Below are positions 23,381 through 41,477 of a stretch of DNA of 46,701 bases, piece after piece. The DNA is from Escherichia phage YDC107_1. The notes beneath the pieces are model-generated. The model ran no database searches. It was not told the DNA's origin and saw only the letters and a program-made list of their open reading frames with translations. The DNA is taken from sequence record CP025712.1. One strand, given 5' to 3'. Position numbers and translations under genes: made by a program. Position 1 is the first letter of the stretch. Each line of letters opens with the position of its first letter.

Positions 23381-23398
23381 TTATCCCTCCGTGACCAG

Positions 23399-26233: not shown

Positions 26234-26876
26234 TTAATAATGCGGTTCGATTTAAGCTCAGACATCGCGACTTAATTAAAAGCCAGCGTTCTTTATAATC
26301 TTGTCTCCAGCTATCAATAGATATATTCAGTAGAAAACTCAGATGCCTGTCCTGTTCTCTCTCATCAACTGCCTCAGCACACGTAAGTTCTGATTTAACC
26401 TGTTGTGCCGCGTAATAAATCAATTTCCGCATGGCTTTTTTCGTGGAGGCCTTCATTTTTTTAAAGCCGCCCCCCGAATGAGCAACCAGAAAATCAAGCC
26501 ATAACCACTGACAAACAATCACATCATTGTTGTAATCAGGCTTGCATCCGTAGCAATAATAAAGCCAGGCTGATTCCTCGTTATTCAACTGACCAATAGC
26601 CCTGCGCCAGCTGGCGCTCTGAAAATCAATATCAGTGAGCAACATTGATGATTGTTTAAATGTTTTCCCCTGATGGAATCTAACCGGCTCAGCAGGAACG
26701 GACACTTCGTATGAGTTATCATCCCCCACACTGATTGACCGGACTGGTTTATTGTTAAACCGTCCTGATCTACCGAGACGCATCTGCTCAAGCTGGACCT
26801 CCAGAATGCCACGCTGGCGATAATGAACATCAGCCAATGCCGTAGAGACGCAGCTGCGTATATACTCAAGCTCCAC
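26166..26876 (-). CDS. Hypothetical early protein directly downstream of cro (regulator or Q-like candidate)
   Basis: 236 aa from a GTG start with SD AAGGAG; contains CYGC…C cysteines; family not recognised. Confidence 0.5.
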   Translation of the reverse strand: MELEYIRSCVSTALADVHYRQRGILEVQLEQMRLGRSGRFNNKPVRSISVGDDNSYEVSVPAEPVRFHQGKTFKQSSMLLTDIDFQSASWRRAIGQLNNEESAWLYYCYGCKPDYNNDVIVCQWLWLDFLVAHSGGGFKKMKASTKKAMRKLIYYAAQQVKSELTCAEAVDEREQDRHLSFLLNISIDSWRQDYKERWLLIKSRCLSLNRTALLNAAEKRSEIIKRHRAGSAILPL

Positions 26877-27087
26877 GCTTACGACTCTCCTTAATCGACT
26901 GCTTTACCCGCCGAGTTGTAAAGTCACTCTTCAGCTTATAAGCAGTACGAACTTCAATATCGCTTTGCCGCAATGAAGGAATCTCTCCAGCGGTTAACCA
27001 TTGGTAAACAGCTCCGGGTGTTACACCTACCCCTGCCGCTGCTTTTTCTACACTGCCAAAATGGCGAATAAGTTCTTCTGGTTTCAT
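26866..27087 (-). CDS. cro: Cro-like HTH repressor
   Basis: 73 aa from MKPEELIRHFGSVEKAAAGVGVTPGAVYQWL; divergent from the repressor gene. Confidence 0.7.
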   Translation of the reverse strand: MKPEELIRHFGSVEKAAAGVGVTPGAVYQWLTAGEIPSLRQSDIEVRTAYKLKSDFTTRRVKQSIKESRKRGA

Positions 27088-27118
27088 GTTGTTATTATAA
27101 ACAATAAACAACAATTAA

Positions 27119-27156
27119 AGCCAGCTATAATAAATAAATTTTATAGCCAGCTATAA
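27119..27156. promoter_or_regulatory. Operator region between cro and cB: two AGCCAGCTATAA repeats
   Basis: Repeats at 27119-27130 and 27145-27156; the second lies in the near-palindrome TTATAGCCAGCTATAA; AT-rich promoter context. Confidence 0.5.
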
Positions 27157-27178
27157 GAAGATCATTTATGATTACAGT

Positions 27179-27775
27179 ATGAAAACACGAGGCGAACGAC
27201 TGAAAGCACGCCGTTTAGAGATGAAGCTGACGTTGCGAGAAGTTGCTGAGGCTGTCGATATCTCTATAGCAGGCGTCCAAAACTTAGAACGTGGCGACGT
27301 AATGCCGTCACTGGAGATAGGTATTGCCCTGGCTAAGTGCTTACGCAAGCCAGTGCATTGGGTGCTATATGGGACAGAATATGACCCTGATCGCATTCCT
27401 GTTATTGGCACAACTGAAAGTGGGCCGGATGAAGAGTGGAAGCCGGGACAGGTTCCAAATACTGAGCGATTCCTGCCATTCATCAGCCAGCGCAATACTG
27501 TGTATGCGTTAACTATCAGCAATCTTACGCAGGGAAACTATCAGCCAGGCGATTTTCTCCTGGTCGATTCTGCGCTGGAACTGGTCCCCGGCGAGGATGT
27601 TCTGGTTCGTGATACTGCAGGAAATATCACTATCCAGCGCCTGGCCCGTTTTGATGATGAAAATTACTATCTGGATGGAACAAACTCACAACGCGCCATC
27701 TTCAGGAAAAGCGATCTTGAATTTGTTCACCAAATAGTCGGAACGATCAAATCATTCATGGTTGAGGGTAGATGA
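27179..27775 (+). CDS. cB: Prophage repressor (N15 CB / lambda CI analogue): HTH plus degenerate LexA-like C-terminal domain
   Basis: 198 aa; N-terminal HTH LTLREVAEAVDISIAGVQNLERG. Confidence 0.8.
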   Translation: MKTRGERLKARRLEMKLTLREVAEAVDISIAGVQNLERGDVMPSLEIGIALAKCLRKPVHWVLYGTEYDPDRIPVIGTTESGPDEEWKPGQVPNTERFLPFISQRNTVYALTISNLTQGNYQPGDFLLVDSALELVPGEDVLVRDTAGNITIQRLARFDDENYYLDGTNSQRAIFRKSDLEFVHQIVGTIKSFMVEGR

Positions 27776-27869
27776 CTTAATACGGGGTTTATTGTTTGCT
27801 GTAAATCTGGTTTAATGCAGGGCATATGTTCTGTGGGTTGACTCAGGTTACAGCAGCAGAAAAAAGACG

Positions 27870-27905
27870 AAAAAAAACCCGAGTCGGCAAACTCGGGTCC
27901 TTTTC
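27870..27905. terminator. Bidirectional rho-independent terminator after the repressor gene
   Basis: A-run, CCCGAGT-CGGCAAA-ACTCGGG, then T-run. Confidence 0.5.
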
Positions 27906-28020
27906 AGGAAGCAGCCACAACAACGCGACAGATTCCGTCAATTCAAGATGCGTTTATTGTGGCTGCTCCTGCGGATTTTTTCAACCCGAAAAAACATAAT
28001 TCGCATGGAATGGCTAAAAA

Positions 28021-31000
28021 ATGACATTAAACGATTTCTATGCGGATCGCTTTGGCAGCGATCCGTTCTCGCTAATTGAAGCAGCACGGGATGAACTAAC
28101 CGAGCTGGCACAGATGGCTGGTATCAACTGGCCTGCCTGTTCCGACAACATCCAACTCAACCCTCGCGGGGGGGTTGAGCGTTACTCTTCATACAATAAA
28201 ACATCTCCAGAAGCTCTCGAAAAGAGCCTGAAAGGACGCGTAGAAATTTACTCCAGGCTGGAACACAGCAAAGGGATTGATTACCCGTTCATTAACTTCG
28301 TCCATAAAGGCAGCGATGCTGGCTCATGGAGCGGTTTCTCCTTCCTGTTTTCTGAATATCGCCGTGAGCAACAACGGAATAATGCGACCGTGGTCGCACA
28401 ACCGGAAGAAGAACGGGAAAGAATAGAACGTCAGGCCGAAGCACGTCGTCGCCGTGAAGAACAAAAACGAATTAATGACCTGAAAAACAACCAAATGGAC
28501 CATGAACGTTTGCTGGGATGGCTGGCATTCCACAGCGCGTGGGAACATGCTCAGGCTGAAGACGGCTCATGGCCATATGCGATTAAAAAAGGTATTCGTG
28601 ACGTTTTTAGTTCATGTGATGTGCGTCGCGTGACCAGTCACGACAGTGCGAAATGGAGCCGGGGGCCAACCACATATATGGCTATCCCTCTGGCTCACCT
28701 GGACGGTCGTTATGATGGTCGTATTGTGGGTTGGCAGCGAATCGACAAACAAGGTGGGAAATACCAGACCAGCGCAGTAACCAGCGGCGATTTCGTCGGT
28801 GCCTGCTTTGTTATCGGTGAGCTGAAAGGGGCGCAAAACATCGCTGTTACAGAAGGTTTTGCTACTGGTGCATCCATCTGGCTTGCCACGAAAAAAGATA
28901 AACGCTTTGACGCGGTGGTTGTCGCTGTATCCGCTAACAACATGGTTCATGTTGTGGAACAACTGGTAAACATGTACCCGGCGGCAAAAATCACCTGCGC
29001 ACTGGATAATGACCGGAAATCTGCCACAGAAGGAAAAGGGAATACCGGCCTGCGGACTGGCTATGAAATCTTATCGAAATTCAACGATGTCCGCTGCGTC
29101 TACCCAACTTTTGAAGACGATCCGCAAATGGAGTGCAGTGACTTCAACGACCTGCACAAACTACGTGGACTTCGTGAAACAGCACGTCAACTATTTGCAA
29201 CAGCAAACCGCCTGAAAACCGGCACTGATTTGCTATCTCTGACGCTCAACCGCCTGAAGACAATTAAGCGGGATAACCGTCGTACTTTTGCCAAAGAGCT
29301 GCTGAGAGCGGTGGATATTGGCATGCTAACCTGTCCGGTTCCTAACAGTCCGTCAGATTTGTTTAACATGTTCTGTATCGTTCTGCGTGAAATGGGGCTG
29401 GAAAATATCTATCGCGCTACGGTAAAAGACCACATTGCCCGTCGCCTGAATAAAAAATGCCGTATTGCCCAGGCTCCGCGCTCTTTCAGCGAACGCATAA
29501 CTGATCCCAATAAACGCCCTCAACATATCACCTATAAGCGTTTTGAAACTTCGGTAATGACCTATGACGTCCTGAAGTACGTGCAATCACTACAGGGGAT
29601 CGTCATCGTTCGTGCTGGTATGGGTTCCGGCAAATCTACTGGATTGTTACGACCGTTAATGCATAGCTCAGAACGCGGTATCTCTGTAGCTCACCGTGTT
29701 TCCCTTATTGGTGGCCTGTGGGAAATGATGACTGAAGGAAAAGGTGTAAAAGCCGATATCCTGCACTATCAGGACCCTGGCTATCAGGAAATGGCTCCAT
29801 ACGCCAGTAAACTGACCATCTGCATAAACTCGATTGTTAAAAACTGCTGGCAACCGTTGATGCGCCAGCACGACTATTTTGGCTTTGACGAGGCCACACA
29901 AGGGCTACGTGCCGTTCTTTCCGGTCGGGCTATGGAAAACCCAGTGGCTGTATTCAATACGCTAATTGACGCGCTGGCCAGAACGGAACAACACCCAATA
30001 ATGGTGGATGCTGATGCGAACGATCTGCTGGTTGACCTGGCTGAACTGGCTATGAAACGCCGTGAAGAACTAGGTTTACCGGCATGGCTGCAGATCCACG
30101 TAATTGAATTACCTGTTGATGTTCGCAACCGCGAAACAGGTGAGCCAATCCGGGTTTTTTATACAGAAAAAGATCGCATCATGACCGAGGTGGTGAAAGC
30201 TGTATCGGATGGCGAAAAAATCATGTTGGCCACCGACAGCTCCACCTTTGCAGAAGATGTGACCGCCACCCTGAGAATGCATTTTCCTGGTAAGAAATTT
30301 CTGTGCGTAAACCAGAAAAGCAAACAGGATGAAGAAGTCGATGCTTTTACCAACCAGCCAAAAGTAATGGTGATGAAATACGATGGACTGATCTACAGCC
30401 CGTCGATTTCCTCCGGGGTGTCATTTGAGAAAAAACATTTTGACCGTCATTTCGGCATGTTCTGCGGTGAAGTTGTGCCCAGCGACGCAGTGCAAATGCT
30501 ACGCCGCGACCGTACAGCAAAAGAATTTATTATCGGCTTTGATAAAGCTCGTGCAAAACGCGAGACTGATCCGCAAAAAATAGAACGTGCATTCGCCCAG
30601 GCATTACTTGCTACCGCAGGCATGAACGGTGAACTGACGGATGTCGTTTTCGATGGCGACCGTATATCAATGGGGGTGGCCAATACCGACTTTACCAGGA
30701 TGAAAATTAAAGCTGCCGCTATTGAAGCGTCTGCGCGTAACGACTACGCCAGCAACATGATCTGCATCATGCACAGCGACGGTTATAAGGTATCGCCATT
30801 AGCTACTGATTATGCCGCAAATGATTTTGGTAAAGAGCTGCGCAAAGAAGCGCGGGATATTGTGTGGGAACAGACGCTGGATCTGCACCTCAATACAGAG
30901 ACACCAGAAGAATCAGAGCGTGAAGAACTACTAAAAAAACGTGCGCTAACGCTTGAAGAACAGGCAAAACTTGTCCGCTGGGATATTGAGAACGAACTGA

Positions 31001-32004
31001 AACTACCGGTTGAAGAAGGCACGCTGAAATTCTATTTCGATGGTGCTCGAGACAAAATTCGCCGTTATGAAACGATGCTGCTTGATGAAGTCACAGCCCG
31101 TCGTTATGACCGTGAAGAAGCGGCTATCAATTTTACATACGCATACCGCCAGACCGGACAGTGGCAATATTTTGTGGTGACCGCGATGACACGCGAGCAG
31201 GCTGATGATGTATTCAAAGCGAAATTTCCGGGAATAATCGACTACAAGGTAAAAGCCACCCCAGCTGTTGAGGTCGGCATGCGCGGATTCTATGCGCTTA
31301 AATCAGCAACTCTCCGGCAGTATTTTATCGACTGCGGTATCGACCCTGAAACTATGACTGGCGAAGCGACGCAGGAACGCCTTAAGTTCGCTCGAGATAA
31401 TCTCATGACAGCAGAACGCCGTGACCTGTTGAATAACGTTCTGCGCATTGGTGGTTTTATGACACCAAAAGGGAAGCCTAAAGTGCCGGAAGCACTGTTT
31501 AAAAACATCTGCGACTCTCTCGGCCTAAAAACAGGAAAACGTCGCGGCAGAGATGGCGATAAGCGCCCGACATTGCGTTTTGTTGAGCCTGAGTCTGTAG
31601 CATTTATGCTTGATATTCTTACGCAACGTCAGGAGGACGGTATGACGTTGAAAGCTCGCAAGGCAGAAAAATCAACGACCGAAGTGGATCGCGATTTGTC
31701 ATTAAATATATATATGAATGGTGAAACGCGATCCACAAACACGGAGGAACAGGATCCCCCTCGTTCAGCTATATCACAGGCTTTGGCTGTATTGCCGGTG
31801 GCTGTTCCTGAGTCCTGGGCGATGAGTGCTCTGCCATCAGCCGAACTGGAATCTATCAGGGGGTGGTCAGTTGACAGCATCGCATACACGTTTGCAGCCC
31901 TTTATATGACTGAGTTTATGGATTTGCTGTCCGGTCATGAGATTAAGTTGCTGAAGGCTTTTATAGGCCCACGACATGCCAGCGATGAGTTTTGTGTAGT
32001 TTAG
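28021..32004 (+). CDS. repA: Replication protein: Toprim primase fused to a helicase/NTPase (N15 RepA / P4 alpha-like)
   Basis: 1327 aa; Toprim motifs (VTEGFATGASIW, ALDNDRKSATEGKG); Walker A GMGSGKST; Walker B-like FDEATQ. Confidence 0.9.
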   Translation: MTLNDFYADRFGSDPFSLIEAARDELTELAQMAGINWPACSDNIQLNPRGGVERYSSYNKTSPEALEKSLKGRVEIYSRLEHSKGIDYPFINFVHKGSDAGSWSGFSFLFSEYRREQQRNNATVVAQPEEERERIERQAEARRRREEQKRINDLKNNQMDHERLLGWLAFHSAWEHAQAEDGSWPYAIKKGIRDVFSSCDVRRVTSHDSAKWSRGPTTYMAIPLAHLDGRYDGRIVGWQRIDKQGGKYQTSAVTSGDFVGACFVIGELKGAQNIAVTEGFATGASIWLATKKDKRFDAVVVAVSANNMVHVVEQLVNMYPAAKITCALDNDRKSATEGKGNTGLRTGYEILSKFNDVRCVYPTFEDDPQMECSDFNDLHKLRGLRETARQLFATANRLKTGTDLLSLTLNRLKTIKRDNRRTFAKELLRAVDIGMLTCPVPNSPSDLFNMFCIVLREMGLENIYRATVKDHIARRLNKKCRIAQAPRSFSERITDPNKRPQHITYKRFETSVMTYDVLKYVQSLQGIVIVRAGMGSGKSTGLLRPLMHSSERGISVAHRVSLIGGLWEMMTEGKGVKADILHYQDPGYQEMAPYASKLTICINSIVKNCWQPLMRQHDYFGFDEATQGLRAVLSGRAMENPVAVFNTLIDALARTEQHPIMVDADANDLLVDLAELAMKRREELGLPAWLQIHVIELPVDVRNRETGEPIRVFYTEKDRIMTEVVKAVSDGEKIMLATDSSTFAEDVTATLRMHFPGKKFLCVNQKSKQDEEVDAFTNQPKVMVMKYDGLIYSPSISSGVSFEKKHFDRHFGMFCGEVVPSDAVQMLRRDRTAKEFIIGFDKARAKRETDPQKIERAFAQALLATAGMNGELTDVVFDGDRISMGVANTDFTRMKIKAAAIEASARNDYASNMICIMHSDGYKVSPLATDYAANDFGKELRKEARDIVWEQTLDLHLNTETPEESEREELLKKRALTLEEQAKLVRWDIENELKLPVEEGTLKFYFDGARDKIRRYETMLLDEVTARRYDREEAAINFTYAYRQTGQWQYFVVTAMTREQADDVFKAKFPGIIDYKVKATPAVEVGMRGFYALKSATLRQYFIDCGIDPETMTGEATQERLKFARDNLMTAERRDLLNNVLRIGGFMTPKGKPKVPEALFKNICDSLGLKTGKRRGRDGDKRPTLRFVEPESVAFMLDILTQRQEDGMTLKARKAEKSTTEVDRDLSLNIYMNGETRSTNTEEQDPPRSAISQALAVLPVAVPESWAMSALPSAELESIRGWSVDSIAYTFAALYMTEFMDLLSGHEIKLLKAFIGPRHASDEFCVV
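28383..28398. repeat. 16-bp core TGCGACCGTGGTCGCA, copy 5, inside repA
   Basis: Outer bases not complementary (16 of 18); mirrored copy at 45080-45097. Confidence 0.5.
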
Positions 32005-32021
32005 AGGGTAGAAGCGTGGGA

Positions 32022-32288
32022 ATGATGCAAGAGTGCCTCGTTTTGATTGAAGGGTATGATCCGTATGTTGTTAACGTCAGCAGAATGGATACTGGCTATA
32101 GCGACTACAAAACTGGTCGTGAACTGCCGTTCACCATCATCAGGATGAATAGCTTTGGCGATGATGATGCTGTTTATTGCTGTATAGCCAGCGATAAAAA
32201 CATGGAAGACCGGACAGATGAAGCCCGTATGCTATTGAGGAAATATAAGGTAAAGCCGTTATCAGAGAATAACGCTGAGAGGGGTTAA
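32022..32288 (+). CDS. Hypothetical protein
   Basis: From ATG MMQECLVLIEGYDP (ORF-track start 31992 is TTG). Confidence 0.45.
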   Translation: MMQECLVLIEGYDPYVVNVSRMDTGYSDYKTGRELPFTIIRMNSFGDDDAVYCCIASDKNMEDRTDEARMLLRKYKVKPLSENNAERG

Positions 32289-32290
32289 AA

Positions 32291-32686
32291 ATGGCAGTTC
32301 AATCATACAAATACGAATCCCCTTTGGATAAGGGATACATTCGTATCAAGTTAAGTCGTTCTCAGCATAAGGCTATTTTTAAGGTAAGGAAAATTCGCAT
32401 ATTGGATGCGTATGCGTATTACTACAACGGTGAAAATGTTGTTGTTGAACACTTTCTTGCACGATGGTTTGTAGCTCTGATTTTTGTCCCTCTCCTGTTA
32501 ATTGGTACTTTTGTGGATGGTTTTCCTAGTACATGGCGGGAGATAAAGAAAGGCCTATTCCCGCGTAAGTACGGCAGATTTTCGCAAGATAGCTGGCGAG
32601 TTATACCTGGTAAACATTCTGTGGATGAGCAGCCGATTGTTGATTACTGGTTGAAGCATATGGCTGATGCTAAAAAAGTTGATTGA
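32291..32686 (+). CDS. Hypothetical membrane protein
   Basis: 131 aa with SD GAGAGGGG; TM segment WFVALIFVPLLLIGTFV. Confidence 0.5.
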   Translation: MAVQSYKYESPLDKGYIRIKLSRSQHKAIFKVRKIRILDAYAYYYNGENVVVEHFLARWFVALIFVPLLLIGTFVDGFPSTWREIKKGLFPRKYGRFSQDSWRVIPGKHSVDEQPIVDYWLKHMADAKKVD

Positions 32687-32704
32687 GTTGTGGAAGGAGT
32701 ATTT

Positions 32705-32929
32705 ATGAACTGTAACAAAAATGAAGAAACTCGCCTGGTTTGGACGGTAGTAATCGGAGATAAAGAGGGCGGTGAAGAGCCTCATTTTGATTATTCTGTG
32801 GCTTTGCAGGCTCTCATCCTTGAAGCGCAGAGATACCAACAAGAGATGCAGAAGAACCCTCAACTGGAACCTCGACCAATTGGCCTATTCTGCGAGCGAG
32901 TATCAGCGGCGGAACTCCCTGATATCTGA
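32705..32929 (+). CDS. Hypothetical small acidic protein
   Basis: MNCNKNEETRLVWTVVIG…; SD GGAAGGA. Confidence 0.45.
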   Translation: MNCNKNEETRLVWTVVIGDKEGGEEPHFDYSVALQALILEAQRYQQEMQKNPQLEPRPIGLFCERVSAAELPDI

Positions 32930-33120
32930 TGCCCTCCAACAGCTGATCAGGTTCTGATCAGTTAGTAAAGCAAACTATAAAAACACCTGTCCCCGTGACT
33001 GGTCACGGGGTAAAATGTCTTTGCAAATTATTGACGTGTGCGTCGTTTTGACGGTAAAGTTACTTCGCTGCGGTAAATCCCGTAGCCGGGACTCTCAACC
33101 CCGAAATCCGAACGACGCAC

Positions 33121-33143
33121 AACACGCGCCAGCGTGTTTTTTT
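33121..33143 (+). terminator. Rho-independent terminator ending a short untranslated transcript upstream of the anti-repressor operon
   Basis: AACACGC-GCCA-GCGTGTT followed by a T-run. Confidence 0.45.
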
Positions 33144-33309
33144 GTGTGTATGAGCCTGCGCATATCCGAATTATGGTGGCTCAGGTGGGGCAGCCGAAAG
33201 GCTGGCCGGTGTCGTTTGGGCCGGTGTTGAGAACCCCGCTTGGGCTACCACCCCATAGAGATTCTCAACTCTGGTGGTAGCACTGTTTTACCAAACAAGA
33301 GTGCATACC

Positions 33310-33474
33310 ATGTTCAAATTCAAATTTGCGGCAGTCGTTCGCACAGACAAAAAGTCACACATCCATCATCTTTCCACCATCGCGTCATCTGAACGGGAAG
33401 CTCGTCGCCAGTTCGCCAGCCGGTTTGTCCTGGTATTGTCTGCCCGTATTCCGGTGCGCGAGGTGGCTGCATGA
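33310..33474 (+). CDS. Small protein, first gene of the anti-repressor operon (Icd-like position)
   Basis: 54 aa from MFKFKFAAVVRTDKK. Confidence 0.35.
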   Translation: MFKFKFAAVVRTDKKSHIHHLSTIASSEREARRQFASRFVLVLSARIPVREVAA

Positions 33475-33704
33475 ATCAGGTAAAAATGAACACTGTTGGC
33501 CTGCTGGAATCGTTGGATGAACGTCTGGCTCAGGTCTATGCGCTTGTGTCATCAGCCCATCGTACAGTCTCCAGTTGTGAGGCGTCGATTTATCTCTCAG
33601 AAGCCGGGAAGCTCCTTCAAATCGCGTGTGAGTTGACACACAAAGCACAGGGGTATTCAGCATCTCTCTCGTCGCAATTGCAGCACAATAAGGAGGCCAA
33701 ATGA
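33471..33704 (+). CDS. Hypothetical protein (anti-repressor operon)
   Basis: 77 aa, SD GAGGTGG, ATGA-coupled to neighbours. Confidence 0.45.
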   Translation: MNQVKMNTVGLLESLDERLAQVYALVSSAHRTVSSCEASIYLSEAGKLLQIACELTHKAQGYSASLSSQLQHNKEAK

Positions 33705-34477
33705 GCGCGTTAGCTGTATTTTCGTTTCAGGAAGAGCATCAGGTTCGTGTAGTGATGATTGATAGCGATCCGTGGTTTGTTGCATCTGATGTGTGTATGG
33801 CGGCGGGTATTGATTCTACGGCCATTAGAAAGTTGGATGAGGACGAAAAGGGTCTGCATTTAATGCAGACCCCTGGCGGATACCAGAATGTTTCAATCAT
33901 CAAGGAGTCAGGTCTATACACCCTAATCCTCCGCTGCCGTGACGCGGTGAAGCAAGGCACAACAGCTTGGCGGTTTCGCAAATGGGTAACGAACGAAGTC
34001 TTGCCCTCTATTCGCAAAAATGGAGAGTACGTTTACGTTGAGCCAGAGCCAATGCGAGCAGCAGAGCCGTTGAACTGGAGGCAGAAAGAGTATCTGCGAG
34101 GGCTGATTAACGATATTGCACAAAGTTTTCAATACCGAAATGCCTGGATTAGCGGTGTATGGTTGGCTTTGCGTCGGGCGTGTCGTAATCCATCCCCGAA
34201 CCCCATAACTGTTGATGATTTGCCAGCAATAACGGCAGAACTGCGACGGATTTTGACGGCTGCTGAGTCGGCATTGGGGAACATGCGCACGTATGAACGA
34301 GAGTTGTTGCGTGATGTTGTTCGTGGTGGTAGGCGGAGTATGTCGTGTGGTGATTTGCCCATCACCGATATCAACTCTGATCTGGAAAAGGCGTTACCCG
34401 CGCATTTTGAACTGGCAGTTCAAAAACTTGAGCAGTTGTCCGCGCAGCTAAAGCCAGCAGAAATCACCAATAAATAG
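33701..34477 (+). CDS. ant: Anti-repressor with Bro-N domain
   Basis: 258 aa; N-terminus FSFQEEHQVRVVMIDSDPWFVASDVCMAAGI… typical of Bro-N/Ant; SD AGGAGG. Confidence 0.75.
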   Translation: MSALAVFSFQEEHQVRVVMIDSDPWFVASDVCMAAGIDSTAIRKLDEDEKGLHLMQTPGGYQNVSIIKESGLYTLILRCRDAVKQGTTAWRFRKWVTNEVLPSIRKNGEYVYVEPEPMRAAEPLNWRQKEYLRGLINDIAQSFQYRNAWISGVWLALRRACRNPSPNPITVDDLPAITAELRRILTAAESALGNMRTYERELLRDVVRGGRRSMSCGDLPITDINSDLEKALPAHFELAVQKLEQLSAQLKPAEITNK

Positions 34478-34649
34478 GGTTGGCCAGCCCGAATTGATGC
34501 CCTTCTTAGTGAGGGGAAGCCTCGCAGTCTGGGCGGTGATGTCTGTGGTTGCAGCCGCGTTTCCTCCGTTACTTCTGCCCTTTGCAGGGGGCAGGCGAGG
34601 CAGGCCACATAACAAGGCACCGATTAATTCGGTGCCTTTAACGTATGCT

Positions 34650-36551
34650 TTAGCCGAAATATGTCAGCCATGCTAACTGCATTGCTGACATGGGGCTGTT
34701 TGCACTGCCTGACCACGCATAATTCTGGCCATTATAATGAAACTCAACAACGTATGAGCCATCACCAATATTTCTCACAGGCTTAAATACCGGCTTAGAT
34801 ACAGGTGAAGAAGGCGCGGGCGGTTGCTGTTCTTCTACGCTCTCTTCCTCTTCCTCTTCCTCTTCCTCTATCTCAATTTCGTCGTCATCCAGATCGTCAT
34901 CCTCTGATAATTCATCCGTCTGTTCAGGTATTGCTTCCAGCTCTTCTTCGTCAGGCATAACGATTTCTGGAGAATCTATTTTCAGCTGCCATTGTCCATT
35001 TTCGCCAACAAATTGCCCCAGAGCATCAGCAGCAAATTCCAGGTATCGACTAATCATTGTAGGGCTAAATTTGAATGCTCTTAGAGTGCTGTTCGTGATT
35101 TTTATAGAGGGGTCATGCTCTACCAGCTGCTTAACTGTGTTATGCAGACGAACCCCGGCATCTCCTCTGGCGAATCCTGGCATTTCGTCATCAAGCTGCT
35201 GCAATGCTTCCAGCCTGGTATTTTCGTTTCCAGTATTTGGCCTCCATGTCTTTGAGAAGTTGGCCAGCTTGAATTGCTTATAGTGTAATTGAGTGTTTTC
35301 ATCGTCATGGCCTAAAATTTCCATAAAGAAAACATCCTCATCTACGTTTTTCCAACGAGGATCTACGCGGAAAAACATTTCATACGCAATACGGGCATAA
35401 ATAGCACGACTATCTTTATAAACACGGCGGTCATCTTTGAAAAATGATTTAACCCACGGGTTAAAAGCCTTTGCTAATATGGCATTAATCCGTCCGTTTT
35501 CAGAGCGTGTGTCGTTATCTCCATAACCTTTAACGACATCATCAAAATCAGATGCTGCCGGGCATGAGCGAAGTACATTTATTAAATAAACAAATGTTTT
35601 TGCTTCGCATAATGTATATATTTTTCTGGTTATATCATCAGAAGTTCTTTTTTTTGCTTGGCCTAAAAAATCAACGGTATACTTACCAGAAACAGTAAAT
35701 GTACCTTGATACATAATCTCAATCATTCGTCTTCCTGACAATGCAGCAAGTGCAAATGCCAAAGGAGCCATACCTGAACGAGTGTTTAGATTATTTAATG
35801 TAGCAGGGCTATTTATAATATCGTAAATAGCTTGCATATATTTAGGGTAATCAATGACCACCACGTTACGTTTCTTATTGTGCAGAACGTCTGCCCATCG
35901 TTGCTGGATAGATGCGCGTTCGGCAGGGCTTAGTTGAAGATGATAGAGAATCTCATGGTTAACTTTTAGCTGATTCAACTCCTCAAGCAAGGCAGATCCT
36001 TGCTGTAGTAATTTATATAAATAATCGCGCTTATCTTTCCAGTTATCGCTAGTTAAATCAGAAATGGCGAATTGCCACTCTTTATATTTATTTGATAATT
36101 TTAATAACTTATTATGACTTTTGTTATCACCAATTCTGATATTAGATAAATCTTCTGATAAAGGGAGAATTAATTTTAATTTTGCCTGTAAAGCTGACAT
36201 TCTCTGGCGAATATCGGCAGCAGGTAGAGAAAGCCATGACAATAGCTCCTCATTATATAAAGGATACTTTTCAGATAGGCGATGTATATTTTTTTCAAAG
36301 CTATGATGAAGTTTATCATCAAACCGTTTTCTGGCCCTGCTCATATAGGTATTGAATGTGTTGGCTGTAATTCTTTTTTCTAATCCTTTCCCCCTAAACT
36401 TTCGCTTGTCATTAAATAATGCATTTTTAAACTTTAATGCAACAGCCTTTATTTTTTTTGTTTTCTCCCCTTGAGGACGGTCAGAGTTATCTATTGACTC
36501 AACATCGCTAACAAGTGAGTTTATTAATTCACCGATTTTTACTTTGCTCAT
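34650..36551 (-). CDS. telN: Protelomerase (TelN-like telomere resolvase)
   Basis: 633 aa; N-terminus MSKVKIGELINSLVSDVESIDNSDRPQGEKTKKIK… and length resemble N15 TelN as I recall; acidic C-terminal stretch; start 190 bp from the telRL-like palindrome. Confidence 0.88.
   Translation of the reverse strand: MSKVKIGELINSLVSDVESIDNSDRPQGEKTKKIKAVALKFKNALFNDKRKFRGKGLEKRITANTFNTYMSRARKRFDDKLHHSFEKNIHRLSEKYPLYNEELLSWLSLPAADIRQRMSALQAKLKLILPLSEDLSNIRIGDNKSHNKLLKLSNKYKEWQFAISDLTSDNWKDKRDYLYKLLQQGSALLEELNQLKVNHEILYHLQLSPAERASIQQRWADVLHNKKRNVVVIDYPKYMQAIYDIINSPATLNNLNTRSGMAPLAFALAALSGRRMIEIMYQGTFTVSGKYTVDFLGQAKKRTSDDITRKIYTLCEAKTFVYLINVLRSCPAASDFDDVVKGYGDNDTRSENGRINAILAKAFNPWVKSFFKDDRRVYKDSRAIYARIAYEMFFRVDPRWKNVDEDVFFMEILGHDDENTQLHYKQFKLANFSKTWRPNTGNENTRLEALQQLDDEMPGFARGDAGVRLHNTVKQLVEHDPSIKITNSTLRAFKFSPTMISRYLEFAADALGQFVGENGQWQLKIDSPEIVMPDEEELEAIPEQTDELSEDDDLDDDEIEIEEEEEEEEESVEEQQPPAPSSPVSKPVFKPVRNIGDGSYVVEFHYNGQNYAWSGSANSPMSAMQLAWLTYFG
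34842..34868. repeat. (CTCTTC)n hexanucleotide repeat inside telN, encoding a poly-Glu tract
   Basis: Four and a half tandem CTCTTC units; mirrored at about 38616-38642. Confidence 0.6.
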
Positions 36552-36714
36552 CTTTCCTCTCCTGATTATCCGCTCGGATTATCGTAACACAATTTGAGAA
36601 TAAGATAACTAATAACGCGTTAACTTAGGCACAAACTAACAGAACACAATAACGGATAATAAATAAAAACACAATATCGGAACGTTAAAATTTGTTCCTT
36701 GACTTTGTTCTGAA

Positions 36715-36770
36715 AATCAGCACATAATTTCCCATTATACGCGCGTATAATGGGAAATTATGTGCTGATT
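36715..36770. other. telRL-like telomere resolution site; centre of dyad symmetry between 36742 and 36743
   Basis: AATCAGCACATAATTT-CCCATTATACGCGCGTATAATGGG-AAATTATGTGCTGATT, same architecture as N15 telRL as I recall. Confidence 0.8.
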
Positions 36771-36933
36771 TTCAGAACAAAGTCAAGGAACAAATTTTAA
36801 CGTTCCGATATTGTGTTTTTATTTATTATCCGTTATTGTGTTCTGTTAGTTTGTGCCTAAGTTAACGCGTTATTAGTTATCTTATTCTCAAATTGTGTTA
36901 CGATAATCCGAGCGGATAATCAGGAGAGGAAAG

Positions 36934-38833
36934 ATGAGCAAAGTAAAAATCGGTGAATTAATAAACTCACTTGTTAGCGATGTTGAGTCAATAGATAACT
37001 CTGACCGTCCTCAAGGGGAGAAAACAAAAAAAATAAAGGCTGTTGCATTAAAGTTTAAAAATGCATTATTTAATGACAAGCGAAAGTTTAGGGGGAAAGG
37101 ATTAGAAAAAGAATTACAGCCAACACATTCAATACCTATATGAGCAGGGCCAGAAAACGGTTTGATGATAAACTTCATCATAGCTTTGAAAAAAATATAC
37201 ATCGCCTATCTGAAAAGTATCCTTTATATAATGAGGAGCTATTGTCATGGCTTTCTCTACCTGCTGCCGATATTCGCCAGAGAATGTCAGCTTTACAGGC
37301 AAAATTAAAATTAATTCTCCCTTTATCAGAAGATTTATCTAATATCAGAATTGGTGATAACAAAAGTCATAATAAGTTATTAAAATTATCAATAAATATA
37401 AAGAGTGGCAATTCGCCATTTCTGATTTAACTAGCGATAACTGGAAAGATAAGCGCGATTATTTATATAAATTACTACAGCAAGGATCTGCCTTGCTTGA
37501 GGAGTTGAATCAGCTAAAAGTTAACCATGAGATTCTCTATCATCTTCAACTAAGCCCTGCCGAACGCGCATCTATCCAGCAACGATGGGCAGACGTTCTG
37601 CACAATAAGAAACGTAACGTGGTGGTCATTGATTACCCTAAATATATGCAAGCTATTTACGATATTATAAATAGCCCTGCTACATTAAATAATCTAAACA
37701 CTCGTTCAGGTATGGCTCCTTTGGCATTTGCACTTGCTGCATTGTCAGGAAGACGAATGATTGAGATTATGTATCAAGGTACATTTACTGTTTCTGGTAA
37801 GTATACCGTTGATTTTTTAGGCCAAGCAAAAAAAAGAACTTCTGATGATATAACCAGAAAAATATATACATTATGCGAAGCAAAAACATTTGTTTATTTA
37901 ATAAATGTACTTCGCTCATGCCCGGCAGCATCTGATTTTGATGATGTCGTTAAAGGTTATGGAGATAACGACACACGCTCTGAAAACGGACGGATTAATG
38001 CCATATTAGCAAAGGCTTTTAACCCGTGGGTTAAATCATTTTTCAAAGATGACCGCCGTGTTTATAAAGATAGTCGTGCTATTTATGCCCGTATTGCGTA
38101 TGAAATGTTTTTCCGCGTAGATCCTCGTTGGAAAAACGTAGATGAGGATGTTTTCTTTATGGAAATTTTAGGCCATGACGATGAAAACACTCAATTACAC
38201 TATAAGCAATTCAAGCTGGCCAACTTCTCAAAGACATGGAGGCCAAATACTGGAAACGAAAATACCAGGCTGGAAGCATTGCAGCAGCTTGATGACGAAA
38301 TGCCAGGATTCGCCAGAGGAGATGCCGGGGTTCGTCTGCATAACACAGTTAAGCAGCTGGTAGAGCATGACCCCTCTATAAAAATCACGAACAGCACTCT
38401 AAGAGCATTCAAATTTAGCCCTACAATGATTAGTCGATACCTGGAATTTGCTGCTGATGCTCTGGGGCAATTTGTTGGCGAAAATGGACAATGGCAGCTG
38501 AAAATAGATTCTCCAGAAATCGTTATGCCTGACGAAGAAGAGCTGGAAGCAATACCTGAACAGACGGATGAATTATCAGAGGATGACGATCTGGATGACG
38601 ACGAAATTGAGATAGAGGAAGAGGAAGAGGAAGAGGAAGAGAGCGTAGAAGAACAGCAACCGCCCGCGCCTTCTTCACCTGTATCTAAGCCGGTATTTAA
38701 GCCTGTGAGAAATATTGGTGATGGCTCATACGTTGTTGAGTTTCATTATAATGGCCAGAATTATGCGTGGTCAGGCAGTGCAAACAGCCCCATGTCAGCA
38801 ATGCAGTTAGCATGGCTGACATATTTCGGCTAA
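36934..38833 (+). pseudogene. Mirror copy of telN, broken by two 1-bp homopolymer contractions
   Basis: ORF fragments 36934..37143, 37140..37430 and 37493..38833; first break is A6 to A5 at about 37107. Confidence 0.7.
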
Positions 38834-39005
38834 AGCATACGTTAAAGGCACCGAATTAATCGGTGCCTTGTTATGTGGCCTGCCTCGCCTGCCCCCTGCA
38901 AAGGGCAGAAGTAACGGAGGAAACGCGGCTGCAACCACAGACATCACCGCCCAGACTGCGAGGCTTCCCCTCACTAAGAAGGGCATCAATTCGGGCTGGC
39001 CAACC

Positions 39006-39782
39006 CTATTTATTGGTGATTTCTGCTGGCTTTAGCTGCGCGGACAACTGCTCAAGTTTTTGAACTGCCAGTTCAAAATGCGCGGGTAACGCCTTTTCCA
39101 GATCAGAGTTGATATCGGTGATGGGCAAATCACCACACGACATACTCCGCCTACCACCACGAACAACATCACGCAACAACTCTCGTTCATACGTGCGCAT
39201 GTTCCCCAATGCCGACTCAGCAGCCGTCAAAATCCGTCGCAGTTCTGCCGTTATTGCTGGCAAATCATCAACAGTTATGGGGTTCGGGGATGGATTACGA
39301 CACGCCCGACGCAAAGCCAACCATACACCGCTAATCCAGGCATTTCGGTATTGAAAACTTTGTGCAATATCGTTAATCAGCCCTCGCAGATACTCTTTCT
39401 GCCTCCAGTTCAACGGCTCTGCTGCTCGCATTGGCTCTGGCTCAACGTAAACGTACTCTCCATTTTTGCGAATAGAGGGCAAGACTTCGTTCGTTACCCA
39501 TTTGCGAAACCGCCAAGCTGTTGTGCCTTGCTTCACCGCGTCACGGCAGCGGAGGATTAGGGTGTATAGACCTGACTCCTTGATGATTGAAACATTCTGG
39601 TATCCGCCAGGGGTCTGCATTAAATGCAGACCCTTTTCGTCCTCATCCAACTTTCTAATGGCCGTAGAATCAATACCCGCCGCCATACACACATCAGATG
39701 CAACAAACCACGGATCGCTATCAATCATCACTACACGAACCTGATGCTCTTCCTGAAACGAAAATACAGCTAACGCGCTCAT
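39006..39782 (-). CDS. Mirror copy of the Bro-N anti-repressor gene (intact)
   Basis: Identical 258-aa translation to 33701..34477. Confidence 0.5.
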   Translation of the reverse strand: MSALAVFSFQEEHQVRVVMIDSDPWFVASDVCMAAGIDSTAIRKLDEDEKGLHLMQTPGGYQNVSIIKESGLYTLILRCRDAVKQGTTAWRFRKWVTNEVLPSIRKNGEYVYVEPEPMRAAEPLNWRQKEYLRGLINDIAQSFQYRNAWISGVWLALRRACRNPSPNPITVDDLPAITAELRRILTAAESALGNMRTYERELLRDVVRGGRRSMSCGDLPITDINSDLEKALPAHFELAVQKLEQLSAQLKPAEITNK

Positions 39783-40012
39783 TTGGCCTCCTTATTGTGC
39801 TGCAATTGCGACGAGAGAGATGCTGAATACCCCTGTGCTTTGTGTGTCAACTCACACGCGATTTGAAGGAGCTTCCCGGCTTCTGAGAGATAAATCGACG
39901 CCTCACAACTGGAGACTGTACGATGGGCTGATGACACAAGCGCATAGACCTGAGCCAGACGTTCATCCAACGATTCCAGCAGGCCAACAGTGTTCATTTT
40001 TACCTGATTCAT
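39779..40012 (-). CDS. Mirror copy of the 77-aa anti-repressor-operon gene
   Basis: Identical translation to 33471..33704. Confidence 0.4.
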   Translation of the reverse strand: MNQVKMNTVGLLESLDERLAQVYALVSSAHRTVSSCEASIYLSEAGKLLQIACELTHKAQGYSASLSSQLQHNKEAK

Positions 40013-40173
40013 GCAGCCACCTCGCGCACCGGAATACGGGCAGACAATACCAGGACAAACCGGCTGGCGAACTGGCGACGAGCTTCCCGTTCAGATGACG
40101 CGATGGTGGAAAGATGATGGATGTGTGACTTTTTGTCTGTGCGAACGACTGCCGCAAATTTGAATTTGAACAT
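40009..40173 (-). CDS. Mirror copy of the Icd-position small gene
   Basis: Identical translation to 33310..33474. Confidence 0.3.
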   Translation of the reverse strand: MFKFKFAAVVRTDKKSHIHHLSTIASSEREARRQFASRFVLVLSARIPVREVAA

Positions 40174-40553
40174 GGTATGCACTCTTGTTTGGTAAAACAG
40201 TGCTACCACCAGAGTTGAGAATCTCTATGGGGTGGTAGCCCAAGCGGGGTTCTCAACACCGGCCCAAACGACACCGGCCAGCCTTTCGGCTGCCCCACCT
40301 GAGCCACCATAATTCGGATATGCGCAGGCTCATACACACAAAAAAACACGCTGGCGCGTGTTGTGCGTCGTTCGGATTTCGGGGTTGAGAGTCCCGGCTA
40401 CGGGATTTACCGCAGCGAAGTAACTTTACCGTCAAAACGACGCACACGTCAATAATTTGCAAAGACATTTTACCCCGTGACCAGTCACGGGGACAGGTGT
40501 TTTTATAGTTTGCTTTACTAACTGATCAGAACCTGATCAGCTGTTGGAGGGCA

Positions 40554-40778
40554 TCAGATATCAGGGAGTTCCGCCGCTGATACTCGCTCGCAGAATAGGC
40601 CAATTGGTCGAGGTTCCAGTTGAGGGTTCTTCTGCATCTCTTGTTGGTATCTCTGCGCTTCAAGGATGAGAGCCTGCAAAGCCACAGAATAATCAAAATG
40701 AGGCTCTTCACCGCCCTCTTTATCTCCGATTACTACCGTCCAAACCAGGCGAGTTTCTTCATTTTTGTTACAGTTCAT
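40554..40778 (-). CDS. Mirror copy of the small acidic protein gene
   Basis: Identical translation to 32705..32929. Confidence 0.35.
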   Translation of the reverse strand: MNCNKNEETRLVWTVVIGDKEGGEEPHFDYSVALQALILEAQRYQQEMQKNPQLEPRPIGLFCERVSAAELPDI

Positions 40779-40796
40779 AAATACTCCTTCCACAAC

Positions 40797-41191
40797 TCAA
40801 TCAACTTTTTTAGCATCAGCCATATGCTTCAACCAGTAATCAACAATCGGCTGCTCATCCACAGAATGTTTACCAGGTATAACTCGCCAGCTATCTTGCG
40901 AAAATCTGCCGTACTTACGCGGGAATAGGCCTTTCTTTATCTCCCGCCATGTACTAGGAAAACCATCCACAAAAGTACCAATTAACAGGAGAGGGACAAA
41001 ATCAGAGCTACAAACCATCGTGCAAGAAAGTGTTCAACAACAACATTTTCACCGTTGTAGTAATACGCATACGCATCCAATATGCGAATTTTCCTTACCT
41101 TAAAAATAGCCTTATGCTGAGAACGACTTAACTTGATACGAATGTATCCCTTATCCAAAGGGGATTCGTATTTGTATGATTGAACTGCCAT
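40797..41191 (-). pseudogene. Mirror copy of the membrane-protein gene, frameshifted
   Basis: T5 to T4 contraction splits it into ORFs 40797..41018 and 40982..41191. Confidence 0.6.
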
Positions 41192-41193
41192 TT

Positions 41194-41460: not shown

Positions 41461-41477
41461 TCCCACGCTTCTACCCT

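Follow-up and report, generated by a model that had tools for sequence, protein, structure and literature searches.

The locus considered here occupies positions 32930-34477 of a 46,701-nucleotide stretch of Escherichia phage YDC107_1 (CP025712.1), which in its full length we call the window. It consists of a gap of 380 bp, from the stop of the upstream ORF at 32929 to the ATG at 33310, followed by three genes on the plus strand. The first of these, at 33310-33474, encodes a 54-residue member of the host cell-division inhibitor family (67 bits with NCBIfam NF033153, phage_ICD_like, for which the cut-off is 25), 51 of whose 54 residues (~94%, by inspection) are identical to those of the Icd frame of N15. 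The second, antA-like, at 33471-33704, encodes 77 residues with 59% identity to N15 gp31 and matches phrog_10889, ‘anti-repressor’ (E = 1e-17); the phiKO2 record labels the N15 homologue ‘antirepressor AntA’. The third, antB-like, at 33701-34477, encodes 258 residues with 74% identity to N15 gp30 and carries a Bro-N domain (Pfam, 61.6 bits), and the phiKO2 record notes an ‘auxiliary anti-repressor AntB’. Both junctions, icd/antA and antA/antB, are ATGA overlaps (33471-33474 and 33701-33704). An Icd-like first ORF with overlapping AntA and AntB (Bro-N) homologues behind it is the gene content of an N15-type immA operon. An earlier, sequence-only reading of this DNA had described three coupled genes ending in a Bro-N anti-repressor, preceded by about 380 bp, with a small first ORF in the position of icd, and in these respects it was accurate: the first ORF is icd. 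The gap that it described as non-coding contains two RNA genes curated in Rfam, at 33067-33142 and 33169-33255.

The surroundings are likewise those of N15-type immA. The operon lies between a block on the repA side, with the RepA gene at 28021-32004 on the plus strand, and a convergent protelomerase gene (34650-36551, minus strand) that adjoins the telomere site, and the order repA ... immA ... protelomerase is that of N15, phiKO2, KpLi5 and plasmids. The window is that of an N15-like telomere phage. Positions 36743-46701 mirror positions 26776-36742 around the palindrome centre at 36742/36743, so that the window contains the whole locus in two copies; the isrK-like and C4 elements recur at 40228-40416 (minus strand) as part of this telomere-centred palindrome, in a mirror image that is not an independent locus. 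The comparison with N15 immA, which the earlier reading had suggested as a check, shows direct orthology from the leader to AntB, at the protein identities given above and with 80.7% DNA identity over 650 bp covering the leader, icd and the start of antA; the mean column identity of the pairwise alignment with N15 is 89%. Comparisons with relatives covered 11 relatives in the Rfam scan, 12 loci for the leader and 27 distinct loci for covariation. In pattern searches of IMG/VR, a 24-nt terminator pattern returned 47 loci, and a 15-mer returned mostly chance matches and five true ones.

Palindromic DNA upstream of the promoter

Just past the stop codon of the upstream gene lies a double palindrome, CTGATCAG-GTT-CTGATCAG (32943-32961), which contains two GATC sites. 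No second exact match lies in the non-mirrored sequence of the window; N15, phiKO2, KpLi5 and most relatives share it unchanged, and it is degenerate in PhiR46_1 and the E. albertii plasmid. Further downstream follows a perfect 9+9 palindrome, CCCCGTGAC-TG-GTCACGGGG (32991-33010), with its midpoint some 66 bp ahead of the predicted transcription start. The sequence-only reading described it as a 9-bp perfect hairpin in the non-coding DNA. The palindrome is indeed present and perfect, but it lies upstream of the promoter and therefore outside the short transcript, and it is one of three dispersed copies of a conserved DNA palindrome and probably not an RNA hairpin of this system. Leaving the mirrored sequence aside, its core, CGTGACNNGTCACG, is present at 23390, 28629 and 32994; with the two mirrored copies there are five matches in the whole window, against 0.09 expected. 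In N15, GTGACNNGTCAC is found exactly three times, at equivalent places, and in both genomes the core also occurs within repA and between two other genes.

One might nevertheless consider that 32991-33010 is an RNA element, either a terminator or stabiliser of the repA-side operon or a part of a regulatory RNA, and no DNA-binding site at all. The palindrome lies 60 nt past the stop codon of a co-directional gene and as RNA folds at -14.2 kcal/mol (z = -2.6) into an 8-bp stem capped by a 4-nt loop. However, it is followed by no U-run and was not called by the terminator scan; in N15 and phiKO2 the outer pairs of the stem change without compensation, whereas the 12-14-bp core is conserved in all 12 loci compared; and that core recurs inside repA and between two other genes, here and in N15. 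We consider the RNA reading unlikely, and a putative protein-binding site is probably the better description. Known sites offered no match: the inverted repeat of the N15 SopB centromere is GTGCGACC-NN-GGTCGCAC (PMC7205306), and the five sites of this type in the window lie elsewhere than 32991-33010; inspection by eye showed no fit to a LexA box or to a CRP site; and a literature search for a published account of it found nothing relevant. As a putative protein-binding site, CGTGAC-NN-GTCACG may place the immA operon under a DNA-binding regulator in common with repA and the gene-46/47 locus; the 108-residue gene-46 homologue (23399-23725) is one candidate for a protein that binds it.

An IsrK-like leader RNA with a predicted promoter and an intrinsic terminator

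On the plus strand the promoter scan returned a single match, the sigma-70-like TTGACG-18-TAAAGT at 33031-33060. Because the scan found two sites where 2.0 were expected in shuffled sequence, that is, no excess, the promoter call rests on conservation, both hexamers being kept in 12 of 12 loci compared, and on homology; we take this promoter to be the counterpart of the N15 immA promoter Pa. The promoter-like hexamers of the earlier reading are in this sense substantiated.

Seven nucleotides past the -10 hexamer begins a match to Rfam isrK (RF01394) at 33067-33142, which comprises two 5' hairpins, a single-stranded spacer and an intrinsic terminator hairpin. Its score of 54.9 bits exceeds the gathering score of 50 marginally; relatives score 52.8-76, and the element is present in 11 of 11 relatives. 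The minimum-free-energy (MFE) fold of the leader is the model structure (z = -3.6), and hairpin 1 has four covarying pairs among the 27 loci. The terminator, AACACGC-GCCA-GCGTGTT with a run of seven T (33121-33145), has a 7-bp stem at 33121-33138 and is near-invariant in the 27 relatives, its stem pairs being either invariant or G-U; the records of N15 and phiKO2 have a putative rho-independent terminator annotated in the corresponding position, and a strong terminator had been placed at 33121-33143 by the earlier reading as well. By inspection we saw no conserved structure that could serve as an anti-terminator competing with it, and the leader alone folds as the terminator form. From the end of the -10 hexamer at 33060 and the start of the isrK model at 33067, the primary short transcript is predicted to be about 77-80 nt long. 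The short promoter-to-terminator transcript proposed before thus gains an Rfam match above threshold, at a length below the roughly 100 nt then estimated. RNAs of the isrK type characteristically have their own promoter and an intrinsic terminator with partial read-through, and bind Hfq. The related c4-a1b1 motif (RF03163) scores 25.1 bits at 33054-33107, under its gathering score of 46.7, and passes in 5 of the 11 relatives; the sites that correspond to a1 and b1 were located through covariation.

A C4-family RNA between the terminator and icd

A second RNA gene lies 3' of the terminator, at 33169-33255 on the plus strand, and matches the C4 family (Rfam RF01695) over its full length, 1-87, with a score of 71.8 bits (E = 3.6e-12), well over the gathering threshold of 45. 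C4 and isrK both score above their gathering thresholds, in the same order, in the window and in all 11 relatives, N15 and phiKO2 included. The sequence-only reading contains no C4 RNA downstream of the terminator.

The C4 RNA has the architecture of its family, a long closing stem (17 bp), two internal hairpins and a single-stranded junction, and this architecture is backed by covariation. Its MFE structure (-49.2 kcal/mol, z = -4.5) reproduces that of the model; the stems, helices 4-6, are 99-100% paired in the 27 loci, with four pairs of helix 5 changed on both sides; and the intramolecular stems of leader and C4 RNA together are 97.5% paired, with 10 covarying pairs. The closing stem is tRNA-like and is followed by ACCACC. 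In P1, the mature c4 RNA is processed from the operon leader, with RNase P acting at its 5' end, and is a trans-acting repressor. By sequence and structure, 33169-33255 is the orthologue of the N15 CA RNA, of P1/P7 c4 and of the P4 CI RNA. The claim that this is an anti-repressor operon of the P1 immI/N15 immA type with a small RNA at its head is therefore borne out, by the C4 match and by the orthology with N15.

Recognition segments of the C4 RNA and their targets on both sides

Two exposed segments of the C4 RNA are complementary to sites on both sides of the RNA gene, as is typical of the family. Segment a' (GTGTCGTTTGGG, 33209-33220) forms the loop of hairpin 2, and segment b' (GTTGAGAA, 33226-33233), whose sequence is as in N15, is the single-stranded junction. 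Their targets in the leader are b1 (CTCTCAAC, 33092-33099), in the loop of leader hairpin 2, and a1 (TCCGAACGACGC, 33107-33118), the spacer immediately 5' of the terminator; 3' of the C4 RNA they are b2 (TTCTCAAC, 33262-33269) and a2, with the core CCAAAC (33291-33296), which adjoins the Shine-Dalgarno-like AAGAG of icd (33297-33301). All of these lie on the plus strand, and a b target followed by an a target is found only at 33093 and 33263 on the plus strand of the 36.7-kb non-mirrored sequence. A placement of a1 in the loop of leader hairpin 1, as in the c4-a1b1 consensus, was rejected for its poor complementarity.

The b pairings carry the clearest covariation. Seven core pairs of b'-b2 are paired in 27 of 27 loci, five of them changed on both sides with up to three pair types, and the covariation score of 0.67 (0.135 in shuffles, none of 500 reaching it) is lost when the register is slid; for b'-b1, 88% of cells are paired, six pairs are changed on both sides, and the score is 0.60 against 0.12 (again 0/500). 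Five b specificity classes can be told apart, and all of them covary. The a pairings were compared by duplex energy: across the 27 loci, cognate a'-a1 pairs average -13.9 kcal/mol and non-cognate ones -9.1, and cognate a'-a2 pairs -10.8 against -7.7 (p about 1e-8). In the window, RNAduplex gives 12 bp and -18.9 kcal/mol for a'-a1, and the a2 duplex is short, with a 6-bp core. The two segments also appear in different combinations, the b-type TTGAGAA occurring with three a-types and the b-type TTCCTAC with three too. This covariation of a' and b' with their targets supports antisense control of the type of P1 c4, P4 CI and N15 CA.

These complementarities bear directly on the RNA that the earlier reading had in mind, in which the short transcript running from about 33020 or 33067 to 33143 is itself the c4-like repressor and pairs with the ribosome-binding region of icd or ant. 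A promoter-like site and a terminator do bracket a structured RNA of about 77 nt that matches Rfam isrK, and the IsrK RNA of Salmonella Gifsy-1 does act in trans (PMC4825925). However, b1 and a1 (the latter CCGAAC...) agree in sense with b2 and a2, so that the leader is complementary to the C4 RNA and not to the icd/ant mRNA near icd; membership in the c4 family belongs to the separate 87-nt element 3' of the terminator; and in Gifsy-1 the short IsrK activates the anti-repressor and does not repress it (PMC4825925). We regard this assignment of the repressor role as very unlikely.

The same substitutions speak to a protein-coding interpretation of the interval, according to which 33134-33310 is the coding region of a small protein (in N15 the old ‘cA secondary immunity repressor’ CDS, in PGAP annotation of relatives the ‘ash family protein’) and not of an RNA. 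GenBank U63086 and NC_001901 annotate a CDS over the interval, PGAP places ‘ash family protein’ ORFs there in several plasmids, and the window itself has ORFs at 33134-33280 and 33274-33474. Among relatives, however, the ORFs of the interval vary in frame, start and length, the 48-residue ORF of the window matches no NCBIfam model, and the substitutions are compensatory at the RNA level, both within stems and between a'/b' and their targets; moreover, the title of Ravin et al. 1999, as cited in PMC4488713, names a small processed RNA as the regulator. We find the coding interpretation extremely improbable, and where relatives have a CDS annotated over the gap as ‘ash family protein’ or ‘cA’, it is probably spurious.

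For the antisense RNA itself, predicted energies differ between the two sides. Isolated segments bind the mRNA sites b2/a2 with -10.7 and -11.4 kcal/mol, and a whole-molecule cofold of the C4 RNA with the b2/a2 mRNA shows no net gain (ddG +0.9 kcal/mol), so that the case for the a2/b2 interaction rests on covariation and not on predicted free energy; binding of the C4 RNA there would depend on kissing-type pairing or on help from a protein. Pairing of the C4 segments with the leader sites is predicted to be stronger (-18.9 and -17.6 kcal/mol; cofold ddG -5.3). In addition, GCTACCACC (33244-33252), which makes up the 3' side of the closing stem of the C4 RNA, has a second possible partner in GGTGGTAGC (33273-33281); the resulting alternative hairpin (33244-33281, plus strand) is 100% paired in the 27 loci, has two pairs changed on both sides in phiKO2, and is present in the MFE structure of the long transcript. 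This hairpin would put b2 in its loop.

Discussion

Sequence analysis establishes the family memberships, the RNA structures, covariation at three sites, the gene identities and the synteny of this locus. With a probability of roughly 0.85, we consider 32930-34477 to be the immA locus (secondary immunity, or ‘anti-immunity’) of a linear plasmid-prophage of the N15 kind, where icd-antA-antB would be restrained by a C4/CA antisense RNA. Such a system is already known, from N15 since 1999 and from P1 and P4 before that, and current understanding of it is unchanged by our analysis. What it adds is minor, namely that the a and b specificity modules reassort independently, and that a dispersed palindrome accompanies the operon.

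From analogy with these systems we infer the processing of the C4 RNA, its action in trans, and whether the block would be translational or terminational. Transcription would start from the conserved sigma-70-type promoter at 33031-33060, the first ~77 nt forming an IsrK/seqA-like leader of two hairpins and a terminator, and most transcripts would be expected to end at this terminator, yielding a short RNA. Those that read through would run via the 87-nt C4 RNA (33169-33255) into icd-antA-antB, and the C4 RNA would be cut from them and act in trans, as its homology with P1 c4, P4 CI and N15 CA suggests. Its exposed segments, a' in the loop of hairpin 2 and b' in the junction, would then pair with a2 and b2 between C4 and icd. 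Because a2 adjoins the icd Shine-Dalgarno sequence, such pairing should block icd translation, and because of the ATGA gene overlaps antA and antB should be turned off too, through lost translational coupling and polarity or premature termination. The same segments are predicted to pair more strongly with a1 and b1, directly 5' of the leader terminator, and this pairing could make termination CA-dependent. In N15, termination is reportedly CA-dependent. Another possibility is that the C4 RNA is titrated by the short leader, a role proposed for IsrK in Gifsy-1.

The last possibility can be extended to a switch of three RNAs, in which the short leader acts in trans as a decoy and, by tying up the C4/CA RNA or by remodelling the long transcript, turns icd-antA-antB on, and the C4 RNA by itself is the off state. 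The predicted preference of the C4 segments for the leader over the mRNA sites, in isolation and in cofolds, points in this direction, and in the MFE structure of the 264-nt read-through transcript b1/a1 are paired with b'/a' in cis, an arrangement that resembles the inactive ‘structure A’ of isrK-orf45 (PMC4825925); binding of IsrK to the downstream processed RNA STnc1160 has been raised as a possibility in the same study. The basis for such a switch here is predicted thermodynamics, however, and the known systems do not all agree with it: P4 seqA is described as a cis target required for immunity and not as an activator (PMC3632133), and in Gifsy-1 co-expression of STnc1160 left IsrK toxicity unrelieved (PMC4825925). 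We therefore hold the three-RNA switch to be a tentative reading, conceivable though rather less probable than its absence.

Returning to the immA reading, the closest relative is immA of N15 itself (Ravin, Svarchevsky & Deho 1999, Mol Microbiol 34:980), which is described as antA, icd and antB (PMC4488713) and whose antirepressor is, in a statement of PMC10732415 that cites Ravin et al. 1999, under negative control by the small CA RNA. The two loci agree in position and element order, in the sequences of b', b1, b2 and the terminator, and in the dispersed upstream palindrome. They differ in the a segments, a'/a1/a2 being GTCGTTTGG / CCGAACGAC / CCAAAC here and CTTCTTGTA / ACAAGAAG / TACAAGA in N15. 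Given these sequences, the C4 RNA of the present phage and the CA RNA of N15 are probably only partly cross-specific. To our knowledge, anti-repressor activity against the CB repressor and virulent mutants mapping to cA have been reported for N15 only. Prophage induction in N15 depends on another antirepressor, AntC, according to the title of Mardanov & Ravin 2007 as cited in PMC4488713, which leaves some doubt, even for N15, about what immA does physiologically.

With immI of P1 and P7 (Citron & Schuster 1990; RF01695, RF03163) the locus shares a C4-family RNA, two segments each matched on both sides, an icd homologue as first ORF with the anti-repressor behind it, and a downstream target at the icd ribosome-binding site. 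Unlike in P1/P7, the leader here has an intrinsic terminator and an isrK match, and c4-a1b1 is under threshold. An operator for the C1 repressor at the operon promoter is characteristic of P1 immI; we identified no C1-type operator control at this operon. Whereas ant1 and ant2 of P1 are nested, antA and the Bro-N antB are separate genes here, which is an N15-type arrangement.

IsrK and C4 RNAs are described as structural homologues of seqA and the CI RNA of the satellite phage P4 (PMC3632133, PMC4825925), and P1, P7 and N15 have comparable systems (PMC3632133). In P4, as predicted here, a processed RNA derived from the leader pairs on both sides of its own gene (seqA - CI RNA with seqB - seqC). 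The P4 RNA, however, controls replication genes via premature termination and not an anti-repressor operon, and a single complementary segment (seqB) is described there, compared with the two, a' and b', resolved here. The isrK-orf45-anrP locus of Gifsy-1 (Hershko-Shalev et al. 2016, PMC4825925) is similar in having a promoter-proximal IsrK-family RNA with an intrinsic terminator, made in short and read-through forms, with read-through reaching a small ORF whose translation is coupled to that of an anti-repressor, and with a processed RNA downstream, STnc1160, that is complementary to IsrK. The small ORF of Gifsy-1 begins ~107 nt from the transcription start, so that the C4-like region overlaps orf45; here icd begins ~244 nt from the predicted start, and the C4 RNA is a separate 87-nt element. 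Activation by the short IsrK has been demonstrated in Gifsy-1, in contrast to the present locus, which is known from its sequence.

If the immA reading is right, the locus governs whether an N15-type plasmid-prophage can override the repressor that it makes itself or the one made by a co-resident relative. A more general proposal would be that N15-like telomere phages use a three-part RNA switch, in which the leader decoys the C4/CA RNA, with recombining a and b modules and a regulator acting at CGTGAC-NN-GTCACG; taken as a whole, this proposal is doubtful in our estimation. Were it true, independent a and b modules would give rise to a combinatorial set of partly cross-immune anti-immunity classes. 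At the level of secondary immunity, cross-immunity between phages should be predictable from their exact a' and b' sequences, and the present phage shares b' with N15, not a'.

Gene content and RNA families of the operon

The locus is an orthologue of N15 immA, its closest known system. The upstream ORF stops at 32929 and the first operon gene starts at 33310, leaving the gap of 380 bp from which the sequence-only reading had started, and the three + strand genes that follow (icd-like, 33310–33474; antA-like, 33471–33704; antB-like, 33701–34477), which that reading had called coupled, have ATGA stop/start overlaps at 33471–33474 and 33701–33704. The small first ORF, which had been assigned the position of icd, encodes an Icd-family protein (NF033153, 67 bits versus a cut-off of 25), and the third the expected Bro-N domain protein, 74% identical to N15 gp30. 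The second gene product shares 59% identity with N15 gp31 and hits phrog_10889, a PHROG family annotated ‘anti-repressor’. The N15 counterparts are named icd, antirepressor AntA and auxiliary anti-repressor AntB in the phiKO2 GenBank record, and immA has been described as composed of antA, icd and antB (PMC4488713).

The promoter-like hexamers noticed previously (TTGACG-18-TAAAGT, 33031–33060) and the terminator (stem 33121–33138, then T7) are each the sole + strand site of their kind in our scans. Counting Rfam matches above the gathering score, we found two RNA families in the gap. The first, isrK (RF01394, 33067–33142, 54.9 bits versus a gathering score of 50), folds as its model predicts (folding z = –3.6); the match runs from 7 nt past the –10 hexamer into the terminator, which makes the transcript proposed before real as a family member, with a predicted length of ~77–80 nt instead of ~100 nt. 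The second is the C4 antisense RNA (RF01695, 33169–33255, 71.8 bits versus 45), which likewise folds as predicted (z = –4.5). C4 lies beyond the terminator and had been missed. The c4-a1b1 Rfam model stayed below threshold in the window. The order isrK then C4 recurs in 11 of 11 relatives fetched, including N15 and phiKO2, and in the comparison with N15 immA suggested earlier, colinearity extends from the promoter through both leader hairpins, the terminator and C4 to the icd start, with a mean column identity of 89%.

The C4 model is common to this locus, P1/P7 c4 and P4 CI, and the isrK model to this locus, Gifsy-1 IsrK and P4 seqA; the IsrK/seqA and C4/CI equivalences have been stated before, with similar systems in P1, P7 and N15 (PMC3632133), and the N15 antirepressor is under negative control by CA RNA (PMC10732415). 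The system itself is known, and only the present relative had not been studied. Several relatives carry protein-coding calls over the C4 gene, namely ‘ash family protein’, ‘transcriptional repressor’ or a second ‘Icd-like protein’ (L006 1742–1864, L008 747–914, L011 810–917, L004 1920–2054 and N15 gene 32, L001 3251–3541; L-numbers denote relatives' sequences). The calls differ in frame and length from one relative to the next, over a region whose evolution proceeds by RNA-compensatory changes, and these database entries are probably spurious.

Covariation of the recognition sites

We aligned 27 distinct versions of the region that begins with the leader and ends at the icd ATG (alignment A2), taken from phage and plasmid records and IMG/VR. 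Pairing in the intramolecular stems is 97.5%, and 10 of their pairs have changed on both sides. The 8-nt C4 junction b' (GTTGAGAA, 33226–33233) is complementary to b1 (33092–33099), in the loop of leader hairpin 2, and to b2 (33262–33269), 7 nt past the end of the C4 match. Five b classes occur (TTGAGAA, TTCCTAC, TTGCGAA, TTCTCAC and GTTCCAA), and in every one b', b1 and b2 change together. For b'-b2, 91% of cells are paired (100% for the 7 core pairs), 5 pairs are changed on both sides, and covariation is 0.67 versus 0.135 shuffled; for b'-b1 the values are 88%, 6 pairs, and 0.60 versus 0.12, and in neither case did any of 500 shuffles reach the observed value. In every slid register, b'-b2 pairing falls to 26–47%.

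The second segment, a' (33209–33220), in the loop of C4 hairpin 2, is complementary to a1 (33107–33118), in the leader spacer immediately before the terminator, where a duplex of 12 bp at –18.9 kcal/mol is predicted, and to a2 (CCAAAC, 33291–33296), which is followed by AAGAG and borders directly on the Shine-Dalgarno sequence of icd. In the 27 loci, a duplexes between cognate partners exceed non-cognate ones in strength (p ~1e-8), and on the + strand of the non-mirrored 36.7 kb the order b-target then a-target is found only at the two predicted places. An alternative hairpin, which would show b2 in its loop, can form between 33273–33281 and 33244–33252, the closing-stem 3' strand of C4; this pairing is kept in 27 of 27 loci, and phiKO2 has two double changes in it.

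Compared with N15, the locus differs at the allele level: b' is identical, whereas the a'/a1/a2 set matches that of Klebsiella and Enterobacter relatives. More generally, the a and b modules of C4 assort independently over the 27 loci (e.g. L001, L003, L004, L070, L096, L165, L170). The b-type TTGAGAA occurs with CTTCTTGTA (N15), GTCGTTTGG (window, L170) and CTTCGTTTA (L165), and TTCCTAC with GCTGATTGG (phiKO2), CGTTTGGTT (KpLi5) and CTTCGTTTA (L070, L126). This independent assortment suggests recombination within the ~90-nt C4 gene and, with it, combinatorial immunity classes.

Proposed mechanism

Judging from homology and the a/b pairings, the locus most likely works like N15 immA, P1 immI and P4 immunity. 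Transcripts begun at the conserved promoter would mostly stop at the leader terminator, and C4/CA RNA would be made by read-through and, as in the characterised systems, processed. Acting in trans, it would bind the mRNA at b2 and a2 through b' and a', covering the icd ribosome-binding region in what would be a translational block; because the ATGA overlaps couple the three genes, antA and antB would be shut off along with icd. Pairing at b1/a1, which adjoins the terminator, is predicted to be stronger than at b2/a2 and could make termination RNA-dependent, as has reportedly been seen in N15, so that the block may instead be terminational. Another possibility is that the repressor RNA is titrated by the short leader RNA, an idea raised by the Gifsy-1 study (PMC4825925), with which the cis pairing in the MFE structure of the 264-nt transcript is compatible.

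Palindromes upstream of the promoter

The perfect palindrome described earlier, CCCCGTGAC-TG-GTCACGGGG at 32991–33010, is present; its place upstream of the promoter puts it outside the small RNA. The core, CGTGAC-NN-GTCACG, has three copies outside the mirrored second arm, at 23390–23403, 28629–28642 (inside repA) and 32994–33007, and five in the whole window including two mirrored ones, versus 0.09 expected by chance. The first copy falls between minus-strand ORFs 23399–23725 and 23138–23380 (gene-46/gene-47 homologues). N15 has GTGAC-NN-GTCAC exactly three times (L174 28550, 33237 and 39269) in equivalent places: the gene 46/47 junction, the interior of repA and the stretch upstream of immA. 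The core is kept in 12 of 12 loci compared, while the outer ‘stem’ positions vary without compensation, and we consider the element probably a protein-binding palindrome. Identity with the SopB centromere repeats of N15 (PMC7205306) was rejected, the two sequences being different, and our literature search found no paper with the CGTGAC-NN-GTCACG palindrome.

The interval separating the upstream gene from the immA control region contains CTGATCAG-GTT-CTGATCAG (32943–32961), two 8-bp palindromes with one Dam GATC site in each, identical in N15, phiKO2 and most relatives and degenerate in two.

Genome setting

The window is an N15-like linear plasmid-prophage whose assembly probably ran through the hairpin telomere, as indicated by a RepA-type primase/helicase (28021–32004, +, 1327 aa), a protelomerase (34650–36551, –, 633 aa), mirrored arms, and matches to telomere phages and plasmids. 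Apart from a few small inter-arm differences, 36743–46701 is the reverse complement of 26776–36742 (whole mirrored span 26776–46701), the centre of the mirror at 36742/36743 adjoining the protelomerase gene, and identical copies of isrK (40341–40416) and C4 (40228–40314) recur in the second arm. Paired-coordinate sums drift along the arms from 73485 to 73479, hence a handful of single-base indels, one of which truncates the mirrored protelomerase ORF (36934–37143). The mirrored ~10 kb looks like the product of assembly through a covalently closed hairpin telomere, or like a replication intermediate of the head-to-head kind, together with sequencing errors that are strand-specific. Several IMG/VR contigs (L137/L138, L143/L152, L146/L157, L171) likewise have immA twice, in opposite orientations. 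By megablast, 32700–34700 matches N15, phiKO2 and other telomere phages as well as 107 non-mobilizable Enterobacteriaceae plasmids; among the 5426 complete genomes of the E. coli collection, 17 give a match, each time plasmid-borne.

GCGACC-NN-GGTCGC occurs five times (18302, 18522, 21562, 25941 and 28384, one inside repA), fitting the published N15 SopB centromere inverted repeat (GTGCGACC-NN-GGTCGCAC), and, as in N15, is scattered over the genome. The convergent antB-like and protelomerase genes flank the inverted repeat AAGGCACCGA-TTAA-TTCGGTGCCTT (34614–34639), which the terminator scan did not call because of its short T-run and which lies at the position equivalent to an annotated ‘putative bidirectional terminator’ of phiKO2.
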